Part shown: positions 3,224-13,778 of the stretch, piece after piece
Position numbering within the stretch: the stretch's first letter is position 1
How the letters are laid out: each line of letters starts with the position of its first letter
Assembly (NCBI GenBank): GCA_965216675.1
Contig: CBDCGK010000004.1
Coordinates: forward strand, 1,061,516 to 1,125,515
Origin: Acidimicrobiales bacterium
GTDB lineage: Bacteria; Actinomycetota; Acidimicrobiia; Acidimicrobiales; SZUA-35
DNA: 64,000 bases
Direction: 5' to 3'
Notes under the pieces: generated by a model
Seen by the model: the letters and a program-made list of their open reading frames with translations, nothing else
The model's database searches: none
Told to the model about the DNA's origin: nothing
Translations under genes and position numbers: made by a program

Positions 3224-4702
3224 ATGTCTGACCCGTCGTTCGCCGAACGCATCCGTCTCCTGGCCGCCGACCGGCCGGACTCTCCCGCCATCACGATCGG
3301 CACCGAAACGACGACGTTCGCCGAGCTGGACCGCTGGACCAACCGTTTCGCCCGGCGACTCCGCGATGTCGGCGTCGGCGTCGGTGACTTCGTGACCGTG
3401 GCCGAACCGAACTCGGCGGAATTCCTCGTGTCGACGGTCGCCTGTTGGAAGATCGGTGCGGTACCGCAACCGGTATCGGCCCGGCTACCGGGGCTCGAAC
3501 TCGACCAGATCGTCGAGCTGGCCGATTCGACGGTCGTGGTCGGGGCGGCGGTCGACGGTCGATCGTGTCTCCCATCCCGCGCCGCCGCCGACGAGGTCAC
3601 CGCGGCGTTCGACGACGCCGAACTGCCCGATGCCGTCTCACCGGCATGGAAGGCGCCGACCTCGGGAGGATCGACGGGACGCCCCAAGCTGATCGTCTCG
3701 GGTGACCCGTCGATCTACACCGCCACGTTGGCCGGGCTCGGGACCACCGTGGGCGCCGCCGAAGGCGAGACCATGGTCATGCCCGGCCCGCTCTATCACA
3801 ACGGCCCGTTCATCTGGAGTTGTCTCACCATCCTCGCCGGCGGCCACGTTGCCCTCCTCCCCCGCTTCGATGCGGAGGAGACGCTGCGCCACGTCGAGGC
3901 CCATCAGGCCTCGGCCGTCTACCTCGTCCCCACGATGATGCAGCGAATCTGGAAACTCGATGACGAGACCAAGTTCGCCTACGACCTGACCTCGCTGCGC
4001 GTCGCCTTCCACCTGGCCGAACCGTGCCCGCCCTGGCTCAAGGAGAAGTGGATCGAGTGGATCGGTCCCGATGTGCTGTTCGAACTCTACGGGGGCACCG
4101 AGGGCCAGATGTTCACCGTCATCGACGGGCACGAGTGGCTGGCCCACCATGGTTCGGTCGGCCGACCGCTGACCGGCGAGATCAAGATCTGTGACGACGA
4201 GGGCAACGAGGTCGAAGCCGGCGTCGAGGGTGAGGTGTGGATGCGAAACCCCGTCCGGGACACCCCGACCTACCGCTACATCGGCGACGTGTCCAAACCC
4301 CGCGACGGCTGGGAGACCCTGGGAGACATGGGATGGGTGGACGCGGACGGCTACCTCTACCTCGGTGACCGCCGGTCCGACATGATCCTCGTCGGCGGTG
4401 CCAACGTGTATCCGGCGGAGGTGGAGGCGGCCATCGGCGCCCACCCGGAGGTGCTGTCGTCGGCCGTCATCGGCCTACCCGATGACGACAAGGGCAACCT
4501 CGTCCACGCCATCGTGCAGCGGGTGCCGGGCAGCGACCTGCAGGTCGACGAGCTGCAGCGGTTCCTGGCCGAGCGGCTCGTGACCTACAAGCTGCCCCGC
4601 TCGGTCGAGTGGGTGACCGAGTCGCTACGCGACGACGCCGGGAAGGTCCGACGCTCGGCGCTTCAAACCGAGCGTCTTTCCTTCCCGACGGCCGGCGGAT
4701 GA
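3224..4702 (+). CDS. acyl-CoA synthetase (AMP-binding; bile acid-CoA ligase-like)
   Basis: TSGGSTGRPK P-loop, YGGTEG, TLGDMG, NVYPAEVE, GKV lysine. Confidence 0.92.
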   Translation: MSDPSFAERIRLLAADRPDSPAITIGTETTTFAELDRWTNRFARRLRDVGVGVGDFVTVAEPNSAEFLVSTVACWKIGAVPQPVSARLPGLELDQIVELADSTVVVGAAVDGRSCLPSRAAADEVTAAFDDAELPDAVSPAWKAPTSGGSTGRPKLIVSGDPSIYTATLAGLGTTVGAAEGETMVMPGPLYHNGPFIWSCLTILAGGHVALLPRFDAEETLRHVEAHQASAVYLVPTMMQRIWKLDDETKFAYDLTSLRVAFHLAEPCPPWLKEKWIEWIGPDVLFELYGGTEGQMFTVIDGHEWLAHHGSVGRPLTGEIKICDDEGNEVEAGVEGEVWMRNPVRDTPTYRYIGDVSKPRDGWETLGDMGWVDADGYLYLGDRRSDMILVGGANVYPAEVEAAIGAHPEVLSSAVIGLPDDDKGNLVHAIVQRVPGSDLQVDELQRFLAERLVTYKLPRSVEWVTESLRDDAGKVRRSALQTERLSFPTAGG

Positions 4703-4725: not shown

Positions 4726-5352
4726 TCACTCGGCGGTCGGTGACCAATCGAGCGATCGGCCGACCCAGGTCACGATCCGCTCCAGATTGGACGCTCCGGC
4801 CGGTGCCTCCACCACCGGGCCGAACGGTACGGCGGGGTCCTCGCGCCCGTCGGACGGAATGAACCGGACGGCCTCGGCGGCCACGGCCAAATCGGCATCG
4901 TCGATCTCGACCTCGGTGCCGATGGCTCGGGCCAGGTCCCAGCTGTGGGTGGCGAACTCGGCCGTGTAGGCCGCCATGAGCGCAGCTCCCGGCACCTGTC
5001 CCCACGGAACCTCGTAGTTGTCGTCGAGCTTGGCCGCATCCGACCAGGCGGCGTGGATCGCCTCCGCTTCTGCCGCAAGGGCCTCAGACCACCTGGAACC
5101 GGTCCGATGGTCCGGAGCCTCGGTGAAATGGCCCCCGTTTCCGATGATCGTCACCCGGCGGGCGATGAAGATCATGTGCTCGATGAGGTCCTCGACGGTG
5201 AAGTCGGGACACGGCGTCGGCCGCTCGAGCTGATCGGCCGAGGCGGTCGCATCGTCGACGAGACGGCGGGCGGCTGACAGGGCCGCAGCCAGACCACGGC
5301 GGGGGTCCGTCGGGCCGAGCGTTTCTGAAGTTTGTCCTGAGGTAACTGTCAT
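4726..5352 (-). CDS. TIGR03086 family metal-binding protein (MDMPI/DinB superfamily)
   Basis: PTPCPDFTVEDLIEH, EFATHSWDLARA, FGPVV...GR motifs. Confidence 0.85.
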   Translation of the reverse strand: MTVTSGQTSETLGPTDPRRGLAAALSAARRLVDDATASADQLERPTPCPDFTVEDLIEHMIFIARRVTIIGNGGHFTEAPDHRTGSRWSEALAAEAEAIHAAWSDAAKLDDNYEVPWGQVPGAALMAAYTAEFATHSWDLARAIGTEVEIDDADLAVAAEAVRFIPSDGREDPAVPFGPVVEAPAGASNLERIVTWVGRSLDWSPTAE

Positions 5353-5372
5353 GTCGCCATCGTGACGACCAT

Positions 5373-5395
5373 AAGTGGCCACCTATTGGCCACTT
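5373..5395. promoter_or_regulatory. perfect inverted repeat AAGTGGCCA-N5-TGGCCACTT, probable operator of the WYL regulator
   Basis: 9-bp arms in the 70-bp gap between divergent genes. Confidence 0.7.
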
Positions 5396-5422: not shown

Positions 5423-6376
5423 ATGCGGGCCGATCGCCTGGTCGCACTCCTGCTGCTCCTGCAGCGAAAAGGCACGGTCACGGCTCGAGACGCGGCCGAC
5501 GAACTGGAGATCTCGGTTCGCACCGCCCGCCGAGACTTCGAGGCGCTGGCCGCCAGCGGTGTGCCCGTCTACTCCCAGCCCGGTCGAGGTGGCGGCTGGC
5601 GGCTCCTGGGCGGCGGCTCGACCGATCTCTCCGGCCTCACGTCGAATGAGGCCAGGGCACTGTTCGTCGCTGCGGGGCGTTCGCTCGACGCCCACCCTCA
5701 CCTTCGAGCTGCCCTGCGAAAGCTGGCTGCGGCGCTGCCCGAACCGTTCCAGGACGACGCCGAGTCGGCGACCGCATCGATCCGGTTCGACGATGCCAGC
5801 TGGAGCGATCCCCAGGGGCCCGAGGCTCCGCCCCTGCTGGAGGTCGTAACCGATGCCGTCATCGAGGGCCGGCGCCTCGATCTCGACTACCGATCACCTC
5901 GCACCGGCTCCTCGTCACGCCAGGTGAGCCCGCTCGGCCTGGTCAGCAAACGCGGGGTCTGGTACCTGTTGGCGCTGACCGACGAAGGGAAACGTACGTT
6001 TCGTGTCGACCGCGTCCTGGACGCCCGGACGATCGACGGTCCGATCGAGCGACCTGACTCGTTCGAGCTCGACCTGGCCTGGGACGAGGTGGTGGCCGAC
6101 GTTCAGGCCCTGCGCTTGAAGACCGTGGCCACGGCACTGATCGAGCCGGAGGTGGTTCGTCCGTTGCAGTGGTACTTCGGCACCGGCATGGAGATCCTCG
6201 ACCGCAGCGACGACGGCCGGCTGAACATTCGTCTCGCCGCCCATGGCGACCTGGTCATGGCGGCCCAGCTCGCCGGCTTCGGTGGGCAGGTGACGCTGCT
6301 GGATTGCCCCGCCGGCGTACTCGACCATCTTCGCCGGATCGGCAGCGAGCTGTCGGCTCGATACCCGGGTGACTGA
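5423..6376 (+). CDS. YafY-family HTH-WYL transcriptional regulator
   Basis: MRADRLVALLLLLQ..ELEISVRTARRD HTH; PLGLV..GVWYL, RTFRVDRV WYL domain. Confidence 0.93.
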   Translation: MRADRLVALLLLLQRKGTVTARDAADELEISVRTARRDFEALAASGVPVYSQPGRGGGWRLLGGGSTDLSGLTSNEARALFVAAGRSLDAHPHLRAALRKLAAALPEPFQDDAESATASIRFDDASWSDPQGPEAPPLLEVVTDAVIEGRRLDLDYRSPRTGSSSRQVSPLGLVSKRGVWYLLALTDEGKRTFRVDRVLDARTIDGPIERPDSFELDLAWDEVVADVQALRLKTVATALIEPEVVRPLQWYFGTGMEILDRSDDGRLNIRLAAHGDLVMAAQLAGFGGQVTLLDCPAGVLDHLRRIGSELSARYPGD

Positions 6377-6402
6377 TGTGCCCACTGTCACGGACTACAA
6401 CG

Positions 6403-6430
6403 TTGACATTTCGCCTTTGCGCACTATACT
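6403..6430 (+). promoter_or_regulatory. near-consensus housekeeping sigma promoter TTGACA-N16-TATACT
   Basis: Direct match in AT-rich intergenic DNA upstream of the 95-aa gene; TTGC-N6-GCAA inverted repeat at 6431-6444. Confidence 0.75.
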
Positions 6431-6531
6431 TTGCATACAAGCAAGAAAACTTTGGGAGCACCGGAACGGCGCCTCCCCACCCCTCAAGCAAGCCCCCTGC
6501 ATTCAGCAGTATCAAACACAGGAGAACCGAA

Positions 6532-6819
6532 ATGATCGGATCCACCCTCATCGACGCCCAGCGCCAGAGCCTCGAAATGGTCACCGAAATCCAGGACCGT
6601 GTGGTCAAGGCCAACAAGGAATTCGCCCAGTCCGTGAACGGCATGGTCGACACCCTTCCCCTCCCCGAACTCAAGGTTCCGGCCGTGGCCGACACCGACT
6701 TCGTGGGCCAGGCCTTCGACATGACCGCCGAGTGGCTCGAGAACACCCGCAAGTTCACCGAGGAGATGGTGGCTGCCTGGATGCCGGAGGCCCCCAAGGC
6801 CAAGGCGTCGAAGAAGTAG
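6532..6819 (+). CDS. small helical protein, putative phasin/lipid-inclusion protein
   Basis: GGAGAA RBS, strong codon bias, amphipathic-helix pattern, basic tail PKAKASKK; near phaC. Product is inferred. Confidence 0.65.
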   Translation: MIGSTLIDAQRQSLEMVTEIQDRVVKANKEFAQSVNGMVDTLPLPELKVPAVADTDFVGQAFDMTAEWLENTRKFTEEMVAAWMPEAPKAKASKK

Positions 6820-6840
6820 GACTCCTTACGGAGCAACCAA

Positions 6841-6879
6841 ACGACGATCGCCGTCGACCCCCCTTCCGACGGCGTCGTT
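6841..6879 (+). terminator. GC-rich hairpin after the phasin-like gene
   Basis: CGCCGTCG(6849-56)/CGACGGCG(6867-74) stem; no clear U-tract. Confidence 0.45.
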
Positions 6880-6946
6880 CCCCGATGCGGTGGCGAGGCC
6901 AAAGCCCGCCACCGCATCGGCTGTTTTCCGCCACTACGATCGAATC

Positions 6947-7315
6947 ATGAGCTCGGACGACGACCTCTGGCAGGCCAACCTCAAACAACTCGGCACCTAC
7001 ATCCGCTCGCAGCGGAAACTGGCCGAGATGTCGCAGCGCGAGTTGGCAGCACTCGTCAACCTGTCCGACACCTACATGAGCCAACTCGAACGCGGGCTCC
7101 ACGAGCCCTCGATCCGGGTACTGCGATCGATCGCCGGCGGCCTCAACATCGGGGTCGACAACCTCCTGCGTTTCATGGGGGCCGACGACGACGAGGCCGA
7201 TTCCGGCGACGAGGGCCAGTCCCTCACCGCGGAAGCGGGGATCCTGGCCGACCCGAACCTCACCGAAACCCAGAAGCGGGCCCTGCTCGAGGTACTGCGA
7301 AACTTCCGCGAGTAG
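6947..7315 (+). CDS. XRE-family HTH regulator, Rv0474/MLDSR-like
   Basis: LGTYIRSQRKLAEMSQRELA..YMSQLERGLHEPS and C-terminal ILADPNLTETQKRALL; leaderless (TACGAT-N6-ATG). Confidence 0.85.
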   Translation: MSSDDDLWQANLKQLGTYIRSQRKLAEMSQRELAALVNLSDTYMSQLERGLHEPSIRVLRSIAGGLNIGVDNLLRFMGADDDEADSGDEGQSLTAEAGILADPNLTETQKRALLEVLRNFRE

Positions 7316-7332
7316 CCTAGCGATCGCCGCCG

Positions 7333-7746
7333 CTAGGGAGCGGGGTCCTCCGGGCCATCGGCGGCCTGGGTGTCGGCGGCCTGGGTGTCGGCTGATGCAG
7401 GAGGCTCGGACGACTCGCCCGACTCGGCCGCCATCTCACCCTTGGTCTTCTTCAGGATGCCACCGACCTCGGCGCCGACGGTGCTGAACGTCTCGTTCAT
7501 GGCGTCGCGAAGCAGTTCGCCGAGATCCTTGAGATCGGAACGAATCGCCGGGTCCTTCGCCGCGTTGCCGAGGCTGTTGACGGCGTCCTGCAACTTCGCC
7601 CCCATCTCCTCGATGGCGGCCTGCGCCTGCCCGGTCGCCTCACCATCGGGGCCGTGCTCGTCGGCCTCCTGCTCGAGGTGGAGCTTCAACTTGAGCCCGA
7701 GACCCTCGACCTTCGTCTTCACCTCTTGCCAACGATCCTGTGACAT
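7333..7746 (-). CDS. hypothetical helical protein
   Basis: GAGGAGAA RBS; amphipathic helices and acidic tail with ADTQA repeat. Confidence 0.7.
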   Translation of the reverse strand: MSQDRWQEVKTKVEGLGLKLKLHLEQEADEHGPDGEATGQAQAAIEEMGAKLQDAVNSLGNAAKDPAIRSDLKDLGELLRDAMNETFSTVGAEVGGILKKTKGEMAAESGESSEPPASADTQAADTQAADGPEDPAP

Positions 7747-7775
7747 GTTCGGTTCTCCTCGTGTTGGGATTGGTT

Positions 7776-8465
7776 TCAAAAGCGATTGCCTGGTCCGGCC
7801 TGGTCACCGCCCGGTACCGCATCAATCATCGCACAAGCCTCCTTGGCCGCCTGCTCGGCCGGGCGGCGAGACACACCCAGGACCGCCAGCATCAACTCGG
7901 CGACCGCCTGACGGGCATCGAGGTTGAGTTCACCGCCGGCGATACGAAGCGCGGCGCCAGAAGCGACGGCCAGGATGGCGTCGACGGCCAGGGCGTCGAC
8001 ACCGACCGGAACCGCGAATCGGCCGGTCTCGATGCCGGCGGCCACGACATCGGCCACTTGAACGTGGAGCAGCTGACGCAACCCCGAGTCGGGCTCGAGG
8101 AGCCGGGCGAAGGCCCGGGCGAAATTCCGGTCCGCCATCGCCCGGTCGAACAGGCCGACACCGGCCAGGGCGATGCGAACGGCCGGGTCGTCGACGGCCT
8201 GCCGGGCTCGACGCATGCCGTCTCCAACCGCCTCGACCATCTCGGCGACCACATCGGCGATGAGCTCGTCCCGGCCGCCGAAGTGATGGTAGATCGTGCC
8301 CGGCACCATGCCGGCTTCAGCGGCAACGGCGCCGATCGTGGCCCCATCGAGACCGCTGGCGGCAACGACGGCGGTGGCCGCGTCGAGTAGGCGCCGCCGT
8401 GTCCGCTGCCGCTTTCCGGGGTACTTCCTGGTGGCGTACCGGGACGCCTCGATCGAGCCGGGCAT
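7776..8465 (-). CDS. TetR/AcrR-family regulator divergent from phaC
   Basis: RTRRRLLDAA..GLDGATIGAVAAEAGMVPGTIYHHFGGRDEL. Confidence 0.9.
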   Translation of the reverse strand: MPGSIEASRYATRKYPGKRQRTRRRLLDAATAVVAASGLDGATIGAVAAEAGMVPGTIYHHFGGRDELIADVVAEMVEAVGDGMRRARQAVDDPAVRIALAGVGLFDRAMADRNFARAFARLLEPDSGLRQLLHVQVADVVAAGIETGRFAVPVGVDALAVDAILAVASGAALRIAGGELNLDARQAVAELMLAVLGVSRRPAEQAAKEACAMIDAVPGGDQAGPGNRF

Positions 8466-8526
8466 GACAGGTTCACCGTAGCGTCAAATCAATCTGTTCT
8501 CAAGATGTAGTTTCATCGTCGGATCG

Positions 8527-8549
8527 AATTTGACAATCAATGTCAAATT
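8527..8549. promoter_or_regulatory. perfect inverted repeat AATTTGACA-N5-TGTCAAATT, probable TetR operator containing a TTGACA box
   Basis: Directly visible in AT-rich tetR/phaC intergenic DNA. Confidence 0.75.
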
Positions 8550-8647
8550 TACTTTAGTGATTCAGCAAGGGGTACGACCCTTCGCCAGGCGCCCGTGATG
8601 GGGCCGCGCACAACTGCGTCATCCAGGCCAAGACGGAGACATCAAGA

Positions 8648-10432
8648 ATGAGCAGCAAGCCTTCCGACACCCGGCCCACCGAGGCCGATGAGCCGGTCCA
8701 GTCCGACGAGGAGATCTTCGACGCCGCGTTCGAAGCGATCAGAACCTTCAACCCGTTCTTCGGGCCCGCCCCCCTCGCCGACGTCGAGGCCGAACCGAGT
8801 GCCTTTCAACAGATCGGCGTCGCCATGGTCACCAAGCCCGCCGTCGCGCTGCGCCGAATGGCCGGGCTGGCCACCGAGTCGGCCAAGATCGCGCTCGGCG
8901 TGAGCGACATCGAACCCACCGACGACCGGCGTTTCAGCCACGACCACTACGAGTCGAACCCGATCCTGCGACGGCTGGGCCAGCAGTATCTGGCGTGGCG
9001 GGAGACGGTACACGGCTACATCGACGATCTGGATCTTGGCGACGGCACCACCAGCCAGGGCCACTTCATGGCCGACCTCGTCACCGAGGCCGTCGCCCCG
9101 ACCAACACCCTCGCCGGCAATCCCAAAGCCATGGAGGAGGCCATCGCCACACGGGGTCGGAGCCTGCAGCAGGGCTTCCGCAACTGGTTGAACGATCAGG
9201 CCAACAACGGCGGCATGCCGGCCATGGTCGACACCGATCCGTTCGTGATCGGCGAGACCATCGCCGTGACGCCCGGCGAAGTGGTGTTCCGCAACGAGGT
9301 GCTCGAGCTCCTGCGATACACCCCGACCACGACCAAGGTTCGCAAACGACCGCTGATGGTCGTGCCACCCCAGATCAACAAGTACTACGTGCTCGACCTG
9401 GCATCGGGTCGCAGCCTGGTCGAGGCCGCCGTCGCCGAGGGCCAGCAGGTCTTCATGGTCTCGTGGCGCAACGTCACGCCCGAGCAACGGCATTGGGACA
9501 TGGATTTCTACGTCGTGTCGCTCATCGAGGCCATGGACGCCGTGTTGTCGCTGACCAAACAGGACGACCTCAACATGTTGGGCGTGTGCGCCGGTGGCAT
9601 CACCACGGCCGTGCTCAACGGCTACCTCCAGGCGATCGGCGATGAGCGCGTCAACTCCACCAGCTATCTCGTAACCGGGTTGGACTGGGGTGAGCCCACC
9701 CTCCTGGCATCGATGATCTCGGGGGCCAACACCGGCGCCGTCGTCCAGCGGTCCCAAGCCGCCGGCATTCTGTCCGGGCGGGATCTCGGCCAGATGTTCG
9801 CCTTCCTGCGGCCCAACGACCTCGTCTGGAACTACTGGGTCAACAACTACCTGATGGGCAAGAAGCCGCCGGCGTTCGACGTGCTGGCGTGGAACGTCGA
9901 CTCGGCCAACATGCCGGCCGGACTCCACGCCGACTTCATGACCATCTCCTCCCAGAACACCCTGACCATTCCCGGGGCCACCGAGGTCCTGGGCGAGAAG
10001 ATCGATCTCCGTCAGGTCAAGACCGACACCTACGTGGTCGGCGGCAAGACCGACCACATCACGCCGTGGGAGGGTTGTCTCAACACGATCAACATGGTGG
10101 GCGGCGACGCCGAGTTCGTGTTGTGCACCTCCGGACACGTGCAGACCCTCGTCTGCCCCACCGACAACCCGAAGGCCAAGTACCTGGCCATCGACAAGCC
10201 CGGCGGCACGAAGGGCGCCAAGTCGAAGGGGTCCAAGTCCAAGCGAACATCGTTCACCCCTGATTCGTGGCTCGAGGAAGCCACCGAACATACTGGATCG
10301 TGGTGGACACACTGGTTCGAATGGCTCGAGAAGCGCTCTGATGGTCTCGTCAACGCGCCGAAGCAGCTCGACAGCGCCGACTATCCGAGCCTCGGACCGG
10401 CGCCCGGCACCTACGTCCACGAGAAGGCCTGA
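8648..10432 (+). CDS. phaC: polyhydroxyalkanoate synthase (single-subunit, class II-like)
   Basis: DRRF, PTNTLAGNP, TPGEVVFRNEVLELLRY, VPPQINKYYVLDL, SWRN, lipase box GVCAGG, LRPNDLVWNYWVNNYLMG, DHITPW, SGH, GSWW, APGTYV. Confidence 0.95.
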   Translation: MSSKPSDTRPTEADEPVQSDEEIFDAAFEAIRTFNPFFGPAPLADVEAEPSAFQQIGVAMVTKPAVALRRMAGLATESAKIALGVSDIEPTDDRRFSHDHYESNPILRRLGQQYLAWRETVHGYIDDLDLGDGTTSQGHFMADLVTEAVAPTNTLAGNPKAMEEAIATRGRSLQQGFRNWLNDQANNGGMPAMVDTDPFVIGETIAVTPGEVVFRNEVLELLRYTPTTTKVRKRPLMVVPPQINKYYVLDLASGRSLVEAAVAEGQQVFMVSWRNVTPEQRHWDMDFYVVSLIEAMDAVLSLTKQDDLNMLGVCAGGITTAVLNGYLQAIGDERVNSTSYLVTGLDWGEPTLLASMISGANTGAVVQRSQAAGILSGRDLGQMFAFLRPNDLVWNYWVNNYLMGKKPPAFDVLAWNVDSANMPAGLHADFMTISSQNTLTIPGATEVLGEKIDLRQVKTDTYVVGGKTDHITPWEGCLNTINMVGGDAEFVLCTSGHVQTLVCPTDNPKAKYLAIDKPGGTKGAKSKGSKSKRTSFTPDSWLEEATEHTGSWWTHWFEWLEKRSDGLVNAPKQLDSADYPSLGPAPGTYVHEKA

Positions 10433-11369
10433 TCCCGTCGCCGGGGCCGACGGCTCGGGGGTCGTATCGGACCCGGGCGACCAGCTCGGTCGGCGCCTCC
10501 TCGACATATCCGGTCTCCGAATCGCCGTCAAACAACGCGGCTTCTCCACTCCGGATGGCCCCCGGCCACTGCTCCTGATCAACGGAATCGGTGCCACGGG
10601 CGAACTCTTCGAACCCTTCGTCGACGCAATGGAGATCCTGAGCAGCCGGGAGATCATCACCTTCGACGCCCCCGGTGTCGGCTTCTCATCCACCCCGCTC
10701 TACCCGCCGACGATCCGACAGCTGGCCCGCCTGGTGGCCGACATGATCGACACCATCGGACATCGCGAGGTCGACGTCCTGGGCCTGTCATGGGGCGGTG
10801 CGCTGGCCCAGGAGCTGGCCTACCGCCATCCCGACAAGGTCGGGCGGCTGGTTTTGACCGCGACCATGCACGGCTGGACGTCCACCCCCGGACGGCCCGC
10901 CGCCATGTCGATCCTGTTGTCACCCACCCGCTACTACTCACCCCAGTACCTCTACCAGGTGGCGCCGACGCTCTACGGCGGGGCCATCCGCGACAACCGG
11001 GAACTGATCCGCGAACACGCTCAGGTCCGGGCGAGCCGTCCGCCGTCGACGCTCGGGTACACCTGGCAGTTGATGGCGCTACGGCGATGGACCAGCTGGC
11101 CCTGGCTGCGGGACCTCACCCAGCCGACGTTGATCATGGCCGGCGACGACGATCCGATCATCCCGGCCTCGAATGCCGAGGCCATGGCCCGGGAAATCCC
11201 GCACTCCGAGCTGGAGATCGTCGACGGCGGCCATCTCTTCCTCTACACCCGTCCGACCGAGACGGCCCAGCGGATCCACCGGTTCCTGGCCGATGCTGAC
11301 GGCGACCGCAACGACGGACCGACGCCGTCACGTCGTCGCCGCATTCGGGGTCAGTTCATCACCGACTGA
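10341..11369 (+). CDS. phaZ: intracellular PHA depolymerase (PhaZ-like alpha/beta hydrolase); start uncertain
   Basis: PLLLINGIGA, FDAPGVGFS, GLSWGGALAQ, GDDDPII, GHLF; directly after phaC as in Pseudomonas phaC1-phaZ. Confidence 0.85.
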   Translation: MVSSTRRSSSTAPTIRASDRRPAPTSTRRPDPVAGADGSGVVSDPGDQLGRRLLDISGLRIAVKQRGFSTPDGPRPLLLINGIGATGELFEPFVDAMEILSSREIITFDAPGVGFSSTPLYPPTIRQLARLVADMIDTIGHREVDVLGLSWGGALAQELAYRHPDKVGRLVLTATMHGWTSTPGRPAAMSILLSPTRYYSPQYLYQVAPTLYGGAIRDNRELIREHAQVRASRPPSTLGYTWQLMALRRWTSWPWLRDLTQPTLIMAGDDDPIIPASNAEAMAREIPHSELEIVDGGHLFLYTRPTETAQRIHRFLADADGDRNDGPTPSRRRRIRGQFITD

Positions 11370-11378
11370 GCACTGCTG

Positions 11379-13778
11379 TCAGGGGGCGATTCGGTCGGCC
11401 TCGTCGAGGGACCGCCTGATGTCGACATCGGCCTTCGGAACCACGTCGGGGTGGAATCGTCGAGCCGCGGCCTCCAGCGCCTCCTTGACCTCGACCACCA
11501 CGGCCTCGGCGTCACCACGGCGGCACTCGACCGTGATCGAGTCGTGGACCGTCTGCACCGGTAGGGCACCGTCGTAGCGGCTCAGGCGATCGTGCAGGTC
11601 GGCGTAGGCCACCAACATGATGTCGGCCACGCCACCCTGGATCGGTGCGTTGCGCCAGGCGTTGACCATGGCCGAGACCCGCTCCTTGGCCGCCCGGTCC
11701 AGCAACTCGTGGGCCACCCGCTCCCCCATCTCGGCCTCGACCGTCTCGATGAAACGGCGGCGCAGCGAGCGGTCGTCGAACTGGCGGGCCAGCCGTGAGT
11801 CCGAATCCACCTGATCGGTCTCGTCCGGTTCGAGGCGCAGCCCGTGCTCCGCCTCGAAAGCCCGCCGCACGGCGACGAGTCGGGGTGACGGCGACCGGAG
11901 CGCGTCGAGTACCGCCACCAGGAACAGACGATCGAGATGGAGGTTGAACTGCTGGCGCCGGCCCGACAGCGTCCGACTGGCGAACACGAACGGCTCCCCG
12001 TCCGCGGTCAGGGCCACCGGCGCCGAGTACCCCAGCAGCCACTCGGTCTCGGAGAGAAGGGCGGAACGGGCCACGTCCATACGGTCGGGATGGCCGTCGA
12101 CCAGCTCATCGGCGGTCGGCCAGCGATCGTTCGCGGCCCGAAACGCCCGGCGGCGATCGGCATGGCCACGGTACGCGCGGGCCAACCGCATCGTGAGCCG
12201 CCAGTCGATTCTGTCGGTTGTGGTCCGCAGCCGGTCGATCTCGGCGATTCGCTCCCGGGCCCAGGCCGCAACCCCGGGATAGGTCCTGCGGTACTGTTCG
12301 AGCAGGACTTCGGCCTCCTCGCGGCTGGTGGCTACGCCCTCCGCGCTCAGTGATCGGGCCAGGGCCGCCGCCCCCGAACCGTAGGCGATCCCGAAGTTGA
12401 GCGCCTTGGCGATCTGGCGCAGGTGTTTGAACCGTTCGGGATCCCGGGCCTGGAGATCGTCGGGCTCGAAACCGAACATCGTGGCCGCCGTCGAGACGTG
12501 CACGTCGTCACCTCGGGCGAACGCGGCCCGCAACGCGACGTCGTCGGCCACCTGGGCCAGATACCGCAGCTCGGCCTGACTCAGATCGGCATAGACGAAG
12601 ACCCGGTCGGGATCGTGGGGACGCACGAACGGTTTCATCTTCGGCGTCAGGTTCTGGGCATTGGGATTCCGGCTGGCCAGTCGGCCGGTGTTGGTGCCCA
12701 CGACCTGCAGGTACTGGGGTCGGAGCCGACCGTCGTCGTGCAGGTGTTCGTGGATCGACTCACCGTAGGTGCTGAGCGTCTTCGACAGATTTCGGAACTC
12801 GAGGAGGGTGGTGCACACCTCTCCGCCGATCTCGCGCAGAACCGACGCGGTCACCGAATCGAACCGGGTCAAGGTCCGTGACCGACCGAAACGCAGCTTC
12901 GTCCACGCTTGGACCTCGTCGGGCGCCCAACGGTTCAGCGCCTCCCGCACCTGAGGATCGGATGCAGGATTCCAACTCGGTTCGACCGTCGGTTCGAACA
13001 GTGAGGCCTGGCCGCCGCCGGTCAACATGGCCAGCCGGGTCAGCACCTCCCCCTTCTTCACTTCCAGCTGATCCAGCTCGGCCCGCCATCCGGGCCAGTC
13101 GAACGGCAGGCCGCTGCGCTGCATCCGGTCGAGGAACGGCCGGGCCGCCTGCTCGATCTCACAGACGGCGTCGAGACCGGCCGCCGCCACCTCGGCGCGA
13201 ATGCGATCGCCGACCCACAACGTGTAGACGGCATCGGCCGCAGCGTAGGCCACCTGCTCCGGCGTCAGGTCGCTCGACGCGTCGTAGGACAGCTGGGTGG
13301 TGCCCTTGCCGTCGATCTCGGAATCGAGGTAGTGCCGTGTCGCCCACGCCAGCCCGTGGTACCAGGTGAACCCGCTCCGACCCTGGTGAAGCAGGGCGTC
13401 GGCCAGCTGGGCGTCCCACCACGTCAGGCCATCGGTCGTGTCGTCCTGTCGCCACACGGCGGCGTCGAGGACCCGGGCGTCGAAATCGGCGTTCCAGGCA
13501 TCGGCGACGACGCCGTCGAGTATCGGTGCCAGAAGCGACGGGTCGAGATCGCGGACGTCGACCACGAACGCCGACTCGGTGCCGTCGTCGGCCCGGACGG
13601 CCACCGACATGACCCGGAGTTCACCGGCACCGGGGCCGCCGATGGGGACCTCCGTGTCGATCGCCACCCGCTCGGCCACCGACAGTGCCTTGTCGAGTTC
13701 GGCCAAATCGGTCGCGTCGCCGATGAAACGACACGGCACCTCGCTGGCATCACGACTCACCGAATCGAGCCTAGCCAC
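11379..13778 (-). CDS. family A DNA polymerase with 3'-5' exonuclease and no 5' nuclease
   Basis: Exo I AIDTE, Exo II NADFD, Exo III YAAAD; TGRLASRNPNAQN, motif A DLSQAELR, motif B RQIAKALNFGIAYG, NAPIQG, motif C VHDS. Confidence 0.92.
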   Translation of the reverse strand: MARLDSVSRDASEVPCRFIGDATDLAELDKALSVAERVAIDTEVPIGGPGAGELRVMSVAVRADDGTESAFVVDVRDLDPSLLAPILDGVVADAWNADFDARVLDAAVWRQDDTTDGLTWWDAQLADALLHQGRSGFTWYHGLAWATRHYLDSEIDGKGTTQLSYDASSDLTPEQVAYAAADAVYTLWVGDRIRAEVAAAGLDAVCEIEQAARPFLDRMQRSGLPFDWPGWRAELDQLEVKKGEVLTRLAMLTGGGQASLFEPTVEPSWNPASDPQVREALNRWAPDEVQAWTKLRFGRSRTLTRFDSVTASVLREIGGEVCTTLLEFRNLSKTLSTYGESIHEHLHDDGRLRPQYLQVVGTNTGRLASRNPNAQNLTPKMKPFVRPHDPDRVFVYADLSQAELRYLAQVADDVALRAAFARGDDVHVSTAATMFGFEPDDLQARDPERFKHLRQIAKALNFGIAYGSGAAALARSLSAEGVATSREEAEVLLEQYRRTYPGVAAWARERIAEIDRLRTTTDRIDWRLTMRLARAYRGHADRRRAFRAANDRWPTADELVDGHPDRMDVARSALLSETEWLLGYSAPVALTADGEPFVFASRTLSGRRQQFNLHLDRLFLVAVLDALRSPSPRLVAVRRAFEAEHGLRLEPDETDQVDSDSRLARQFDDRSLRRRFIETVEAEMGERVAHELLDRAAKERVSAMVNAWRNAPIQGGVADIMLVAYADLHDRLSRYDGALPVQTVHDSITVECRRGDAEAVVVEVKEALEAAARRFHPDVVPKADVDIRRSLDEADRIAP

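Follow-up and report, generated by a model that had tools for sequence, protein, structure and literature searches.

A conserved gene pair, encoding a candidate storage-inclusion coat protein and an XRE-family regulator, at polyhydroxyalkanoate and neutral-lipid loci of Actinomycetota

Which protein coats the storage inclusions of an actinobacterium that carries polyhydroxyalkanoate (PHA) genes without a recognisable phasin, and what controls that coat? The question is raised by a locus in a 64,000-nt stretch of DNA (hereafter the window) from an uncultured member of the Acidimicrobiia (Acidimicrobiales bacterium, lineage SZUA-35; assembly GCA_965216675.1, contig CBDCGK010000004.1, positions 1,061,516 to 1,125,515 of the forward strand), whose genome has 5.65 Mb, 67% G+C and a completeness of 95%. 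Here a PHA synthase gene (phaC) and a depolymerase-like gene (phaZ) lie close to the genes for a 95-residue protein (A), an XRE-family regulator (the window XRE) and a 137-residue protein (B), with a TetR-family regulator gene divergent from phaC (Table 1). A first-pass annotation, made from the sequence alone, had named these genes, all of which are present where it placed them, and had proposed a hybrid granule system in which new phasin families stand under two regulators. We find that the A and XRE genes form one conserved gene pair, and gene neighbourhoods across the phylum point strongly to a link between this pair and genes for PHA or neutral-lipid storage. Our preferred reading, to which we give somewhat better than even credence, is that A likely serves to coat storage inclusions, with XRE as its predicted controller.

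The first-pass annotation had recognised no phasin or PhaR in the window, and with Pfam models this result extends to the whole genome. PF09361, PF07879 and PF09650 have no match at E ≤ 1 in the genome, and the best genome hit to PF05597 scores 13.5 bits against a cut-off of 28.8 and lies outside the window. In an even set of 251 Actinomycetota genomes (the phylum sample), Phasin_2 (PF09361) is over its cut-off in a single genome, versus 32 genomes for the synthase domain PhaC_N. Given this rarity of classical phasins, the granule-coating proteins of Actinomycetota are largely unknown outside Rhodococcus and Mycobacterium. In one family of the phylum sample (f21), 14 of 18 genomes combine PhaC_N with the lack of both an A-family gene and a Phasin_2 match over cut-off.

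The pairing of A with XRE was followed in two overlapping collections: 18 loci with an XRE homologue from the 88 genomes of the organism's own taxonomic family, and 80 loci found by a scan with the XRE alignment, one genome per species, several of them from the same genomes. All 18 family loci have an A-family open reading frame (ORF) directly upstream of XRE on the same strand, and outside the closest relatives these A-family proteins are 22–40% identical. The 80 loci span Acidimicrobiales, Ilumatobacteraceae, Iamiaceae, Gaiellales, Thermoleophilia, Streptosporangiaceae, Propionibacteriaceae, Nocardioidaceae, Jiangellaceae, Egibacteraceae and a Pseudonocardiales metagenome-assembled genome (MAG). 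By profile match, 69 of them have an A-family ORF, usually upstream of XRE (downstream in six, divergent in two), and five of the 11 loci without a match have less than 150 nt of sequence upstream. Five other families of the phylum contributed 14 more loci, each with an A-family gene directly downstream of an XRE gene. One cultured carrier of the pair is Ilumatobacter nonamiensis YM16-303 (L075). The window XRE has an N-terminal helix-turn-helix (HTH) domain (PF01381, residues 19–71), and a 19-row alignment of its homologues contains 21 invariant columns and a conserved C-terminal helix, ADPxLTExQKxALLxV. A toxin–antitoxin reading of the pair was dropped, the pair being single-copy, vertically kept across the phylum and placed in metabolic loci. 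One genome (G011; loci L024 and L112) has the pair split, with A beside patatin and wax ester synthase/diacylglycerol acyltransferase (WS/DGAT) genes without XRE, and its XRE (C1:1218489) without an A gene within 5 kb. Seven records labelled as Bifidobacteriaceae, Gammaproteobacteria, Azotimanducaceae or Chthoniobacterales (L050, L054, L056, L059, L062, L072 and L096) group within Acidimicrobiia, Ilumatobacter or Gaiellales-like clades of the XRE tree and are probably mis-binned or mislabelled.

Storage genes were sought by tblastn within 5 kb of XRE in the 80 loci, and lipid clusters were confirmed with Pfam. PhaC lies within this distance in 24 loci, in at least four arrangements and as two types, of 52–90% and 34–39% identity: seven loci belong to close relatives, three have a PhaC of 52–54% identity in other arrangements, and 14 have the 34–39% type, mostly directly before A (one further match, of 23% identity, was set aside as doubtful). 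WS/DGAT or a patatin-like lipase is found in 13 loci, an acyl-CoA ligase alone in nine and PhaZ alone in one, while PhaC and WS/DGAT or patatin occur together in none of the 80. One lipid locus (L016), from a genus in which none of three genomes has phaC, reads patatin, WS/DGAT, patatin, XRE, A, then divergent HAD-acyltransferase and WS/DGAT genes; another (L019) runs from two ligase genes through A and XRE to patatin and WS/DGAT. The phylum sample has the A family in 37 genomes (one of which, G258, is unpublished and was counted only), 12 of them also with PhaC_N; in 11 of these A and PhaC_N share a contig and are no more than 2.1 kb apart, and the twelfth has the two on short separate contigs. 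The linkage of A to phaC or lipid-storage genes on which the first-pass proposal turned is thus borne out, in 24 and 13 of the 80 loci respectively. Its further suggestion that a lipid-droplet-type module has been reused at a PHA locus fits this synteny, since the same pair stands in the WS/DGAT–patatin–acyl-CoA-ligase clusters of relatives. A WS/DGAT–HAD-acyltransferase–acyl-CoA-synthetase cluster has been described in Acidimicrobiia (PMC10351704); the terms 'regulator', 'HTH' and 'helix-turn-helix' are absent from the main text of that paper, whose supplementary tables, outside the search, may list an HTH gene. Our literature search found no paper on the A family or on an XRE–small-protein pair at actinobacterial PHA or WS/DGAT loci.

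Position next to phaC could also be read as the mark of a small accessory subunit of the PHA synthase, like PhaE or the Bacillus PhaR. The 14 loci with a 34–39% PhaC, mostly directly upstream of A and on the same strand, would suit such a role, and the three named ESM Atlas clusters nearest to A are all PHA families (0.84, a lead only), PHA_synth_III_E among them. However, A occurs in genomes without any PhaC and inside WS/DGAT clusters, and the PhaC of the window has a full PhaC_N domain, as do the single-subunit classes; we regard a subunit role as very improbable.

Protein A itself ends in PKAKASKK, as the first-pass annotation had reported, and its ATG is preceded at 8 nt by a ribosome-site sequence, GGAG. 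The AlphaFold model (25-row alignment, mean pLDDT 76.6) predicts helices at residues 2–39 and 55–83, joined by a proline-rich loop and followed by a disordered tail. Among 1.84 billion cluster representatives searched by profile, 1,088 came out as relatives with E ≤ 1e-3 (249 with E ≤ 1e-10), an unannotated family of proteins mostly 90–170 residues long, in which the core motifs Q..L......Q..VV and FDF....L...R.FA are kept. The tails are variable: 10–70 Lys/Ala/Thr-rich residues in some members and none in others, with no basic tail in those of L013, L014, L026 and L031. Among 150 family representatives, eight match HC2 (histone-H1-like), five match Phasin_2 weakly (best E 4.9e-4) and three match Apolipoprotein. 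A Nocardioidaceae MAG (L080, 2815–9089) has three A-family paralogues within 7 kb; in two of them the protein closes with a SAP domain that passes the Pfam cut-off (28.9 and 27.5 bits versus 23.9), in place of a Lys/Ala-rich tail. A profile search of the Protein Data Bank (PDB) with A returned designed helical bundles only, and in the ESM Atlas both A and B are nearest to unnamed Actinomycetota clusters. The Phasin_2 matches and the named Atlas clusters tie the family only weakly to phasins. No sequence test places A among known phasins or HbhA-like proteins, and on this evidence it is a new family.

Several observations weigh against a coat-protein role for A. In 33 of the 80 loci the surroundings of XRE, out to 5 kb, contain no storage gene of those searched for, and the phylum sample has 20 PhaC-positive genomes without A and 25 A-positive genomes without PhaC. 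The organism's own family includes single carriers as well, with both A and phaC in 35 genomes, A only in 13, phaC only in 10 and neither in 30; WS/DGAT is present in 80 of these 88 genomes and A in only 48. Such co-occurrence tables and their odds ratios moreover overstate the association of A with phaC, because kin are not independent. As for the protein, the tail in the window is short (about 10 residues, with four lysines), and the first-pass description of A as amphipathic holds to a moderate degree only, as its best 18-residue hydrophobic moment (0.53) does not rise above the shuffled controls (95th percentile 0.57). A has no Pfam or NCBIfam match, in Pfam even at E ≤ 10; a Foldseek search of the model against the PDB gave no hits, and a wide VIA-align search gave generic coiled coils only (Z 4.8–5.2).

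Some of these points would favour another reading, in which A is a nucleoid-associated or stationary-phase stress protein that sits near storage genes through shared regulation by starvation. The basic, K/A-rich tails, the HC2 matches and the SAP domains fit such a protein, as do the 33 loci without a searched storage gene and the 25 of 37 A-positive genomes of the phylum sample that lack PhaC_N. The tail-less members, however, imply that DNA binding is not the conserved core of the family. A and PhaC are adjacent in 11 of the 12 genomes that have both, and the repeated embedding of A between synthase and lipase or depolymerase genes exceeds what co-regulation would account for. We therefore think a primary nucleoid or stress role quite unlikely, and return to A as a candidate inclusion coat, for which its expression signals can also be considered.

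The near-consensus promoter noted by the first-pass annotation upstream of A is present, and is the sole promoter-like site in 6200–8800 (shuffled sequences have 0.3 on average). Over its –10 hexamer lies an operator-like element whose consensus, TGCGtACTATa.t..GcA, is retained in all 19 aligned upstream regions, which come from several genera. Within the window the 18-nt pattern has a single occurrence, and its core, TGCGNACTATA, when searched as a regulon, occurs once in the whole genome, at the A promoter. XRE is predicted to bind the element. L019, L020, L027, L016 and L017 have another 18-nt element, with the pattern TGCG...CGCA, on the upstream side of the –35 hexamer, so that some promoters may have two regulator sites; the window has instead an inverted repeat, TGTCA-N13-TGACA, over the –35 hexamer (6389–6411). 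Between A and XRE the RNA of 6820–6946 folds at –61.3 kcal/mol (z –7.06; none of 200 shuffles as good), and strong hairpins of different sequence occupy the same position in L013, L019, L020, L027, L028, L029 and L030. These signals suggest that A is expressed at a high level and mostly as a monocistronic transcript, with low read-through into the XRE gene. Among the listed sequencing runs, no RNA run contains this stretch.

The same signals bear on a further alternative, that A has no structural role and is a small partner of XRE, either co-repressor or anti-repressor, with which it would form a two-component switch acting on storage-lipid or PHA genes. Nearly all loci, in both XRE paralogue clades, have A and XRE as close neighbours, and the conserved C-terminal amphipathic helix of XRE could be a protein contact; with its promoter element present only once in the genome, such a switch would be local. 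But a near-consensus promoter and a terminator-like hairpin before XRE imply that A far exceeds XRE in amount, and long histone-like or SAP tails are hard to explain in a mere co-factor. The genome in which A stands beside patatin and WS/DGAT apart from XRE (G011) also speaks against a switch. This alternative seems unlikely to us, if worth keeping in sight.

For A as an inclusion coat, the argument is drawn from synteny, architecture and expression signals: the promoter, the hairpin, the helical fold and the K/A/T-rich or SAP tails would all fit an abundant surface protein that touches DNA. In the mechanism that we propose, A would be made in large amounts from its near-consensus promoter, with most transcripts ending at the hairpin and few reading through into the XRE gene. 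The helical hairpin of A would lie on the surface of PHA granules in this organism, and on triacylglycerol or wax-ester droplets in relatives, while its Lys/Ala tail may touch DNA, by analogy with PhaF, PhaM and MLDS. The level of A would be set by an XRE dimer sitting on the 18-nt element at the –10 hexamer, and XRE might itself be titrated by the inclusions, as PhaR and MLDSR are. By analogy, the locus likely works like a phasin-plus-regulator or MLDS-plus-MLDSR system.

Table 1. Features of the storage locus and its direct surroundings, in window coordinates
Feature	Coordinates	Strand	Remarks
Acyl-CoA ligase (AMP-binding)	3224..4702	+	PF00501, 200 bits
MDMPI-like gene	4726..5382	-	between acyl-CoA ligase and WYL/HTH gene
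WYL/HTH regulator	5423..6376	+	between MDMPI-like gene and A
Sigma-70-like promoter of A, TTGACA-16 nt-TATACT	6403..6430	+	11/12 matches
Operator-like element TGCGCACTATACTTTGCA, predicted XRE site	6418..6435	+	over the -10 hexamer
A, 95 residues, candidate coat protein of storage inclusions	6532..6819	+	two-helix hairpin with Lys/Ala tail (predicted)
Perfect 14-bp GC-rich hairpin followed by CTGTTTTCC	6882..6920	+	terminator- or attenuator-like, between A and XRE
XRE-family regulator (XRE1 clade)	6947..7315	+	HTH_3, 41.8 bits
B, 137 residues	7333..7746	-	three predicted helices and acidic tail
TetR-family regulator	7776..8465	-	divergent from phaC; TetR_N, 47.1 bits
Palindrome, 23 nt, AATTTGACAATCAATGTCAAATT, predicted TetR operator	8527..8549		perfect 9-nt arms, 10/11 pairs over 23 nt
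phaC, PHA synthase, class I/II-like, single subunit	8648..10432	+	PhaC_N, 181 bits
phaZ-like intracellular PHA depolymerase	10341..11369	+	TIGR02240, 231.5 bits
Family-A DNA polymerase-like gene	11379..13778	-	799 residues, 3'-5' exonuclease domain

How close is this pair to the known droplet regulator? The first-pass annotation had likened XRE to Rv0474/MLDSR; it does belong to the wider MLDSR-like family, but falls outside the clade whose members are linked to HbhA-like proteins. The genome encodes a second XRE of the same architecture (C4:3628263; L143:4132–4617, region contig 4, 3627459–3629905, or L143:3459–5905), which follows an RsiG-like gene (PF22802, 77.9 bits) and overlaps the start of a 439-residue glycosyltransferase-like ORF. 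For comparison we took an order sample, 81 genomes from the Mycobacteriales-type order containing a Pseudonocardiales MAG; one locus of this sample is from Cryptosporangium arvum. An XRE of this family is present in 77 of the 81, and in the loci read the next gene encodes a longer helical protein whose tail is rich in Lys, Ala and Thr; these helical proteins gave one weak match to PF05597 and one to Apolipoprotein. (One of the 29 sampled XRE loci and one of nine such HbhA-like proteins come from an unpublished genome, G097.) A FastTree phylogeny of 81 XRE rows separates, with a branch support of 99%, the A-linked clade, with the window XRE, from a second clade, in which the order sample is joined by the second XRE from 11 genomes of the family. 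XREs from the order sample are 38–44% identical to the window XRE and 51–60% to the second XRE. By tree and identity the window XRE is a sister paralogue, not an orthologue, of the HbhA-linked XRE clade, the orthologue lying elsewhere in the genome. The arrangement in the order sample agrees with the published account of mldsr-mlds, and Rv0474/MLDSR would, by analogy, belong to the HbhA-linked clade; a search with the Cryptosporangium XRE returned 7,979 hits, none of them named Rv0474 or MLDSR, and a search with one HbhA-like protein returned three hits, none of them named.

Since the 14 extra loci carry the second XRE type and are still paired with A-family genes, both XRE paralogues partner the A family, and pairing with an HbhA-like protein characterises the sampled order. 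The published MLDSR box, GNT(T/A)GCTNNTGCTANC, has no match in 6300–7000 with up to two mismatches, and its four matches elsewhere in the window are at chance level (13 of 100 shuffles reach four). With droplet proteins of the MLDS/TadA/HbhA type A shares a Lys-rich C-terminal tail: hhalign of the A alignment against the nine HbhA-like proteins, a set selected by position and tail and not by name, aligned only 11 tail columns, at a probability of 33%, with no core homology, and the A profile reached at best E 0.019 against HbhA-like ORFs.

Among known systems, our functional model is adopted from the PhaR–PhaP system of Cupriavidus/Ralstonia eutropha, where a dedicated DNA-binding regulator occupies the promoter of a small granule coat protein made in abundance. 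The two systems are unrelated in sequence, PF07879 and PF09361 being unmatched in the genome, and the regulator here is of XRE type. The class II cluster of Pseudomonas, with the order phaC1-phaZ-phaC2-phaD-phaF-phaI, offers a second comparison. Like it, the window has phaC followed by phaZ and a TetR-family regulator gene in the locus; unlike it, there is a single phaC, TIGR01839 and TIGR02240 are under cut-off and PF05597 is unmatched, and the TetR gene diverges from phaC with a palindrome over a –35-like hexamer, which suggests a repressor. The Pseudomonas phasin PhaF is described as binding DNA with a histone-like AAKP tail (PMC5658603), and PhaF and MLDS alike are ascribed an inclusion-binding helical part and a non-specific DNA-binding tail (PMC5658603, PMC5504291), an architecture that the A family resembles. 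GA14 of Rhodococcus ruber is an actinobacterial granule protein of about 14 kDa, encoded beside phaC, and is reported to bind by C-terminal hydrophobic patches (PMC5658603); compared by description only, A with its basic tail and B with its acidic tail show no such patches.

The nearest counterpart is mldsr-mlds of Rhodococcus jostii RHA1, as described in PMC5504291. There, too, a gene for an XRE-HTH protein adjoins that of a helical protein with a Lys-rich tail, the gene mldsr slightly overlapping mlds in one operon. MLDS is an abundant inclusion protein that binds DNA via PAKKA motifs in its tail, and MLDSR acts at the promoter of its own operon and is sequestered by droplets (PMC5504291). 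The window XRE has the same architecture as the HbhA-linked XREs while standing in a sister clade, at the 38–44% identity given above. The window differs from the Rhodococcus operon in having the order coat-then-regulator, an A of only about 95 residues, no copy of the published box, and PHA genes as neighbours. An XRE protein has also been found to bind the phaP1 promoter of R. eutropha (PMC11332829).

Protein B was the other half of the proposed granule system. Its gene starts 30 nt after the TetR stop codon and is probably co-transcribed with TetR. B is helical, as had been described, with three helices predicted at low confidence (pLDDT 55) and an acidic tail; homologues keep the motifs EGLGLKLKLHLEQE and AAKDPAVRADLKDLG, and are present in 51 of the 88 family genomes. 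B has no family match in Pfam or NCBIfam, Apolipoprotein coming up at E 0.055 only. Several findings would suit an additional granule protein, expressed from the TetR operon. B co-occurs with phaC in the family (both in 38 genomes, B only in 13, phaC only in seven, neither in 30), the hydrophobic moment of its best helix, 0.62, lies above the 95th percentile of shuffles, 0.53, and B adjoins WS/DGAT in one genome (G007). Its place between XRE and TetR, however, is found only in the window and in seven of the eight closest loci, and five of six unlinked loci show no conserved neighbour (AmtB, P-type ATPase, CNNM, MFS and GGDEF-EAL genes adjoin it there). B also occurs in 13 genomes without phaC, and its acidic tail, low-confidence model and lack of a family match add to the doubt. 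We consider a granule role for B doubtful, if possible, and the evidence for it as a second phasin is weak. What stands of the hybrid system is the A–XRE pair, tied to storage genes.

As to the PHA genes themselves, the pair had been called class II-like, and its best-scoring models are indeed of class II or Pseudomonas type, but both products stay under the curated cut-offs. PhaC scores best of the three class models with class II (TIGR01839, 557.8 bits against a cut-off of 855.4) and reaches 446.7 with class I (cut-off 622.65); its translation shows the lipase/Cys box GVCAGG. The phaZ-like product has the serine box GLSWGG and narrowly misses the TIGR02240 cut-off of 250.6. If phaZ starts at its first ATG, the two genes overlap by 92 nt (10341–10432), and the same overlap is seen in L029.

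The TetR operator had been described as perfect. The palindrome is there, nearly perfect rather than perfect, and its left arm is a –35-like TTGACA upstream of phaC. It is intact in L037 and L033 and has one mismatch in L040; in L029/L034 and L036, which lack TetR, only a degenerate right arm is left. The TTGACA hexamer is retained even in relatives without TetR. The TetR gene is absent from the region between B and phaC in three close relatives (L029/L034, L036 and L033); L033 has a TetR remnant only beside its intact palindrome, which suggests a recent loss. A TetR gene divergent from phaC is found also in L013, L014, L028, L030, L031 and L037–L040, of which L013, L014 and L031 are distant relatives. 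From these comparisons TetR is likely a repressor acting over the –35-like hexamer of phaC, and our prediction is that it represses phaC-phaZ through the palindrome, as a circuit separate from that of XRE.

On the other side of the pair, acyl-CoA ligase homologues directly adjoin the A gene in L030, L037, L039 and L040 and adjoin the A–XRE pair in L019–L027; the acyl-CoA ligase gene is the ancestral neighbour of the A gene. The WYL gene that stands between them in the window is present in three of the eight closest loci (L033, L034, L036) and was not found in L037, L039 and L040, where the ligase gene ends about 200 nt or less from the A ORF. Beyond phaZ, directly after it on the opposite strand, the polymerase gene is PRK14975-like (257 bits against a cut-off of 640), and its position next to phaZ is kept in L034, L036, L037 and L040. 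The farther flanks hold housekeeping genes: gltX, a leuA-like gene, leuB, greA and an aconitase-family gene.

A wider scheme may be put forward tentatively, and we rate it as less probable than not by some distance. The A family would be an ancestral, phylum-wide inclusion coat for PHA and lipid, with swappable Lys/Ala-repeat or SAP tethers to the nucleoid; two ancient XRE paralogues would sense A, and in Mycobacteriales HbhA/MLDS would later have replaced A in its slot.

The A family, with more than 1,000 clusters, is unannotated and is repeatedly embedded in PHA or triacylglycerol/wax-ester loci, which makes it a concrete candidate for the granule coat of Actinomycetota, and its pairing with XRE provides a testable regulatory model. 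The occurrence of one pair in both settings suggests a shared surface biology of PHA granules and lipid droplets. If the preferred reading is true, A-family proteins could serve actinobacterial bioplastic and oil production as tags and in the control of size, and the MLDSR–MLDS system would gain an evolutionary frame.

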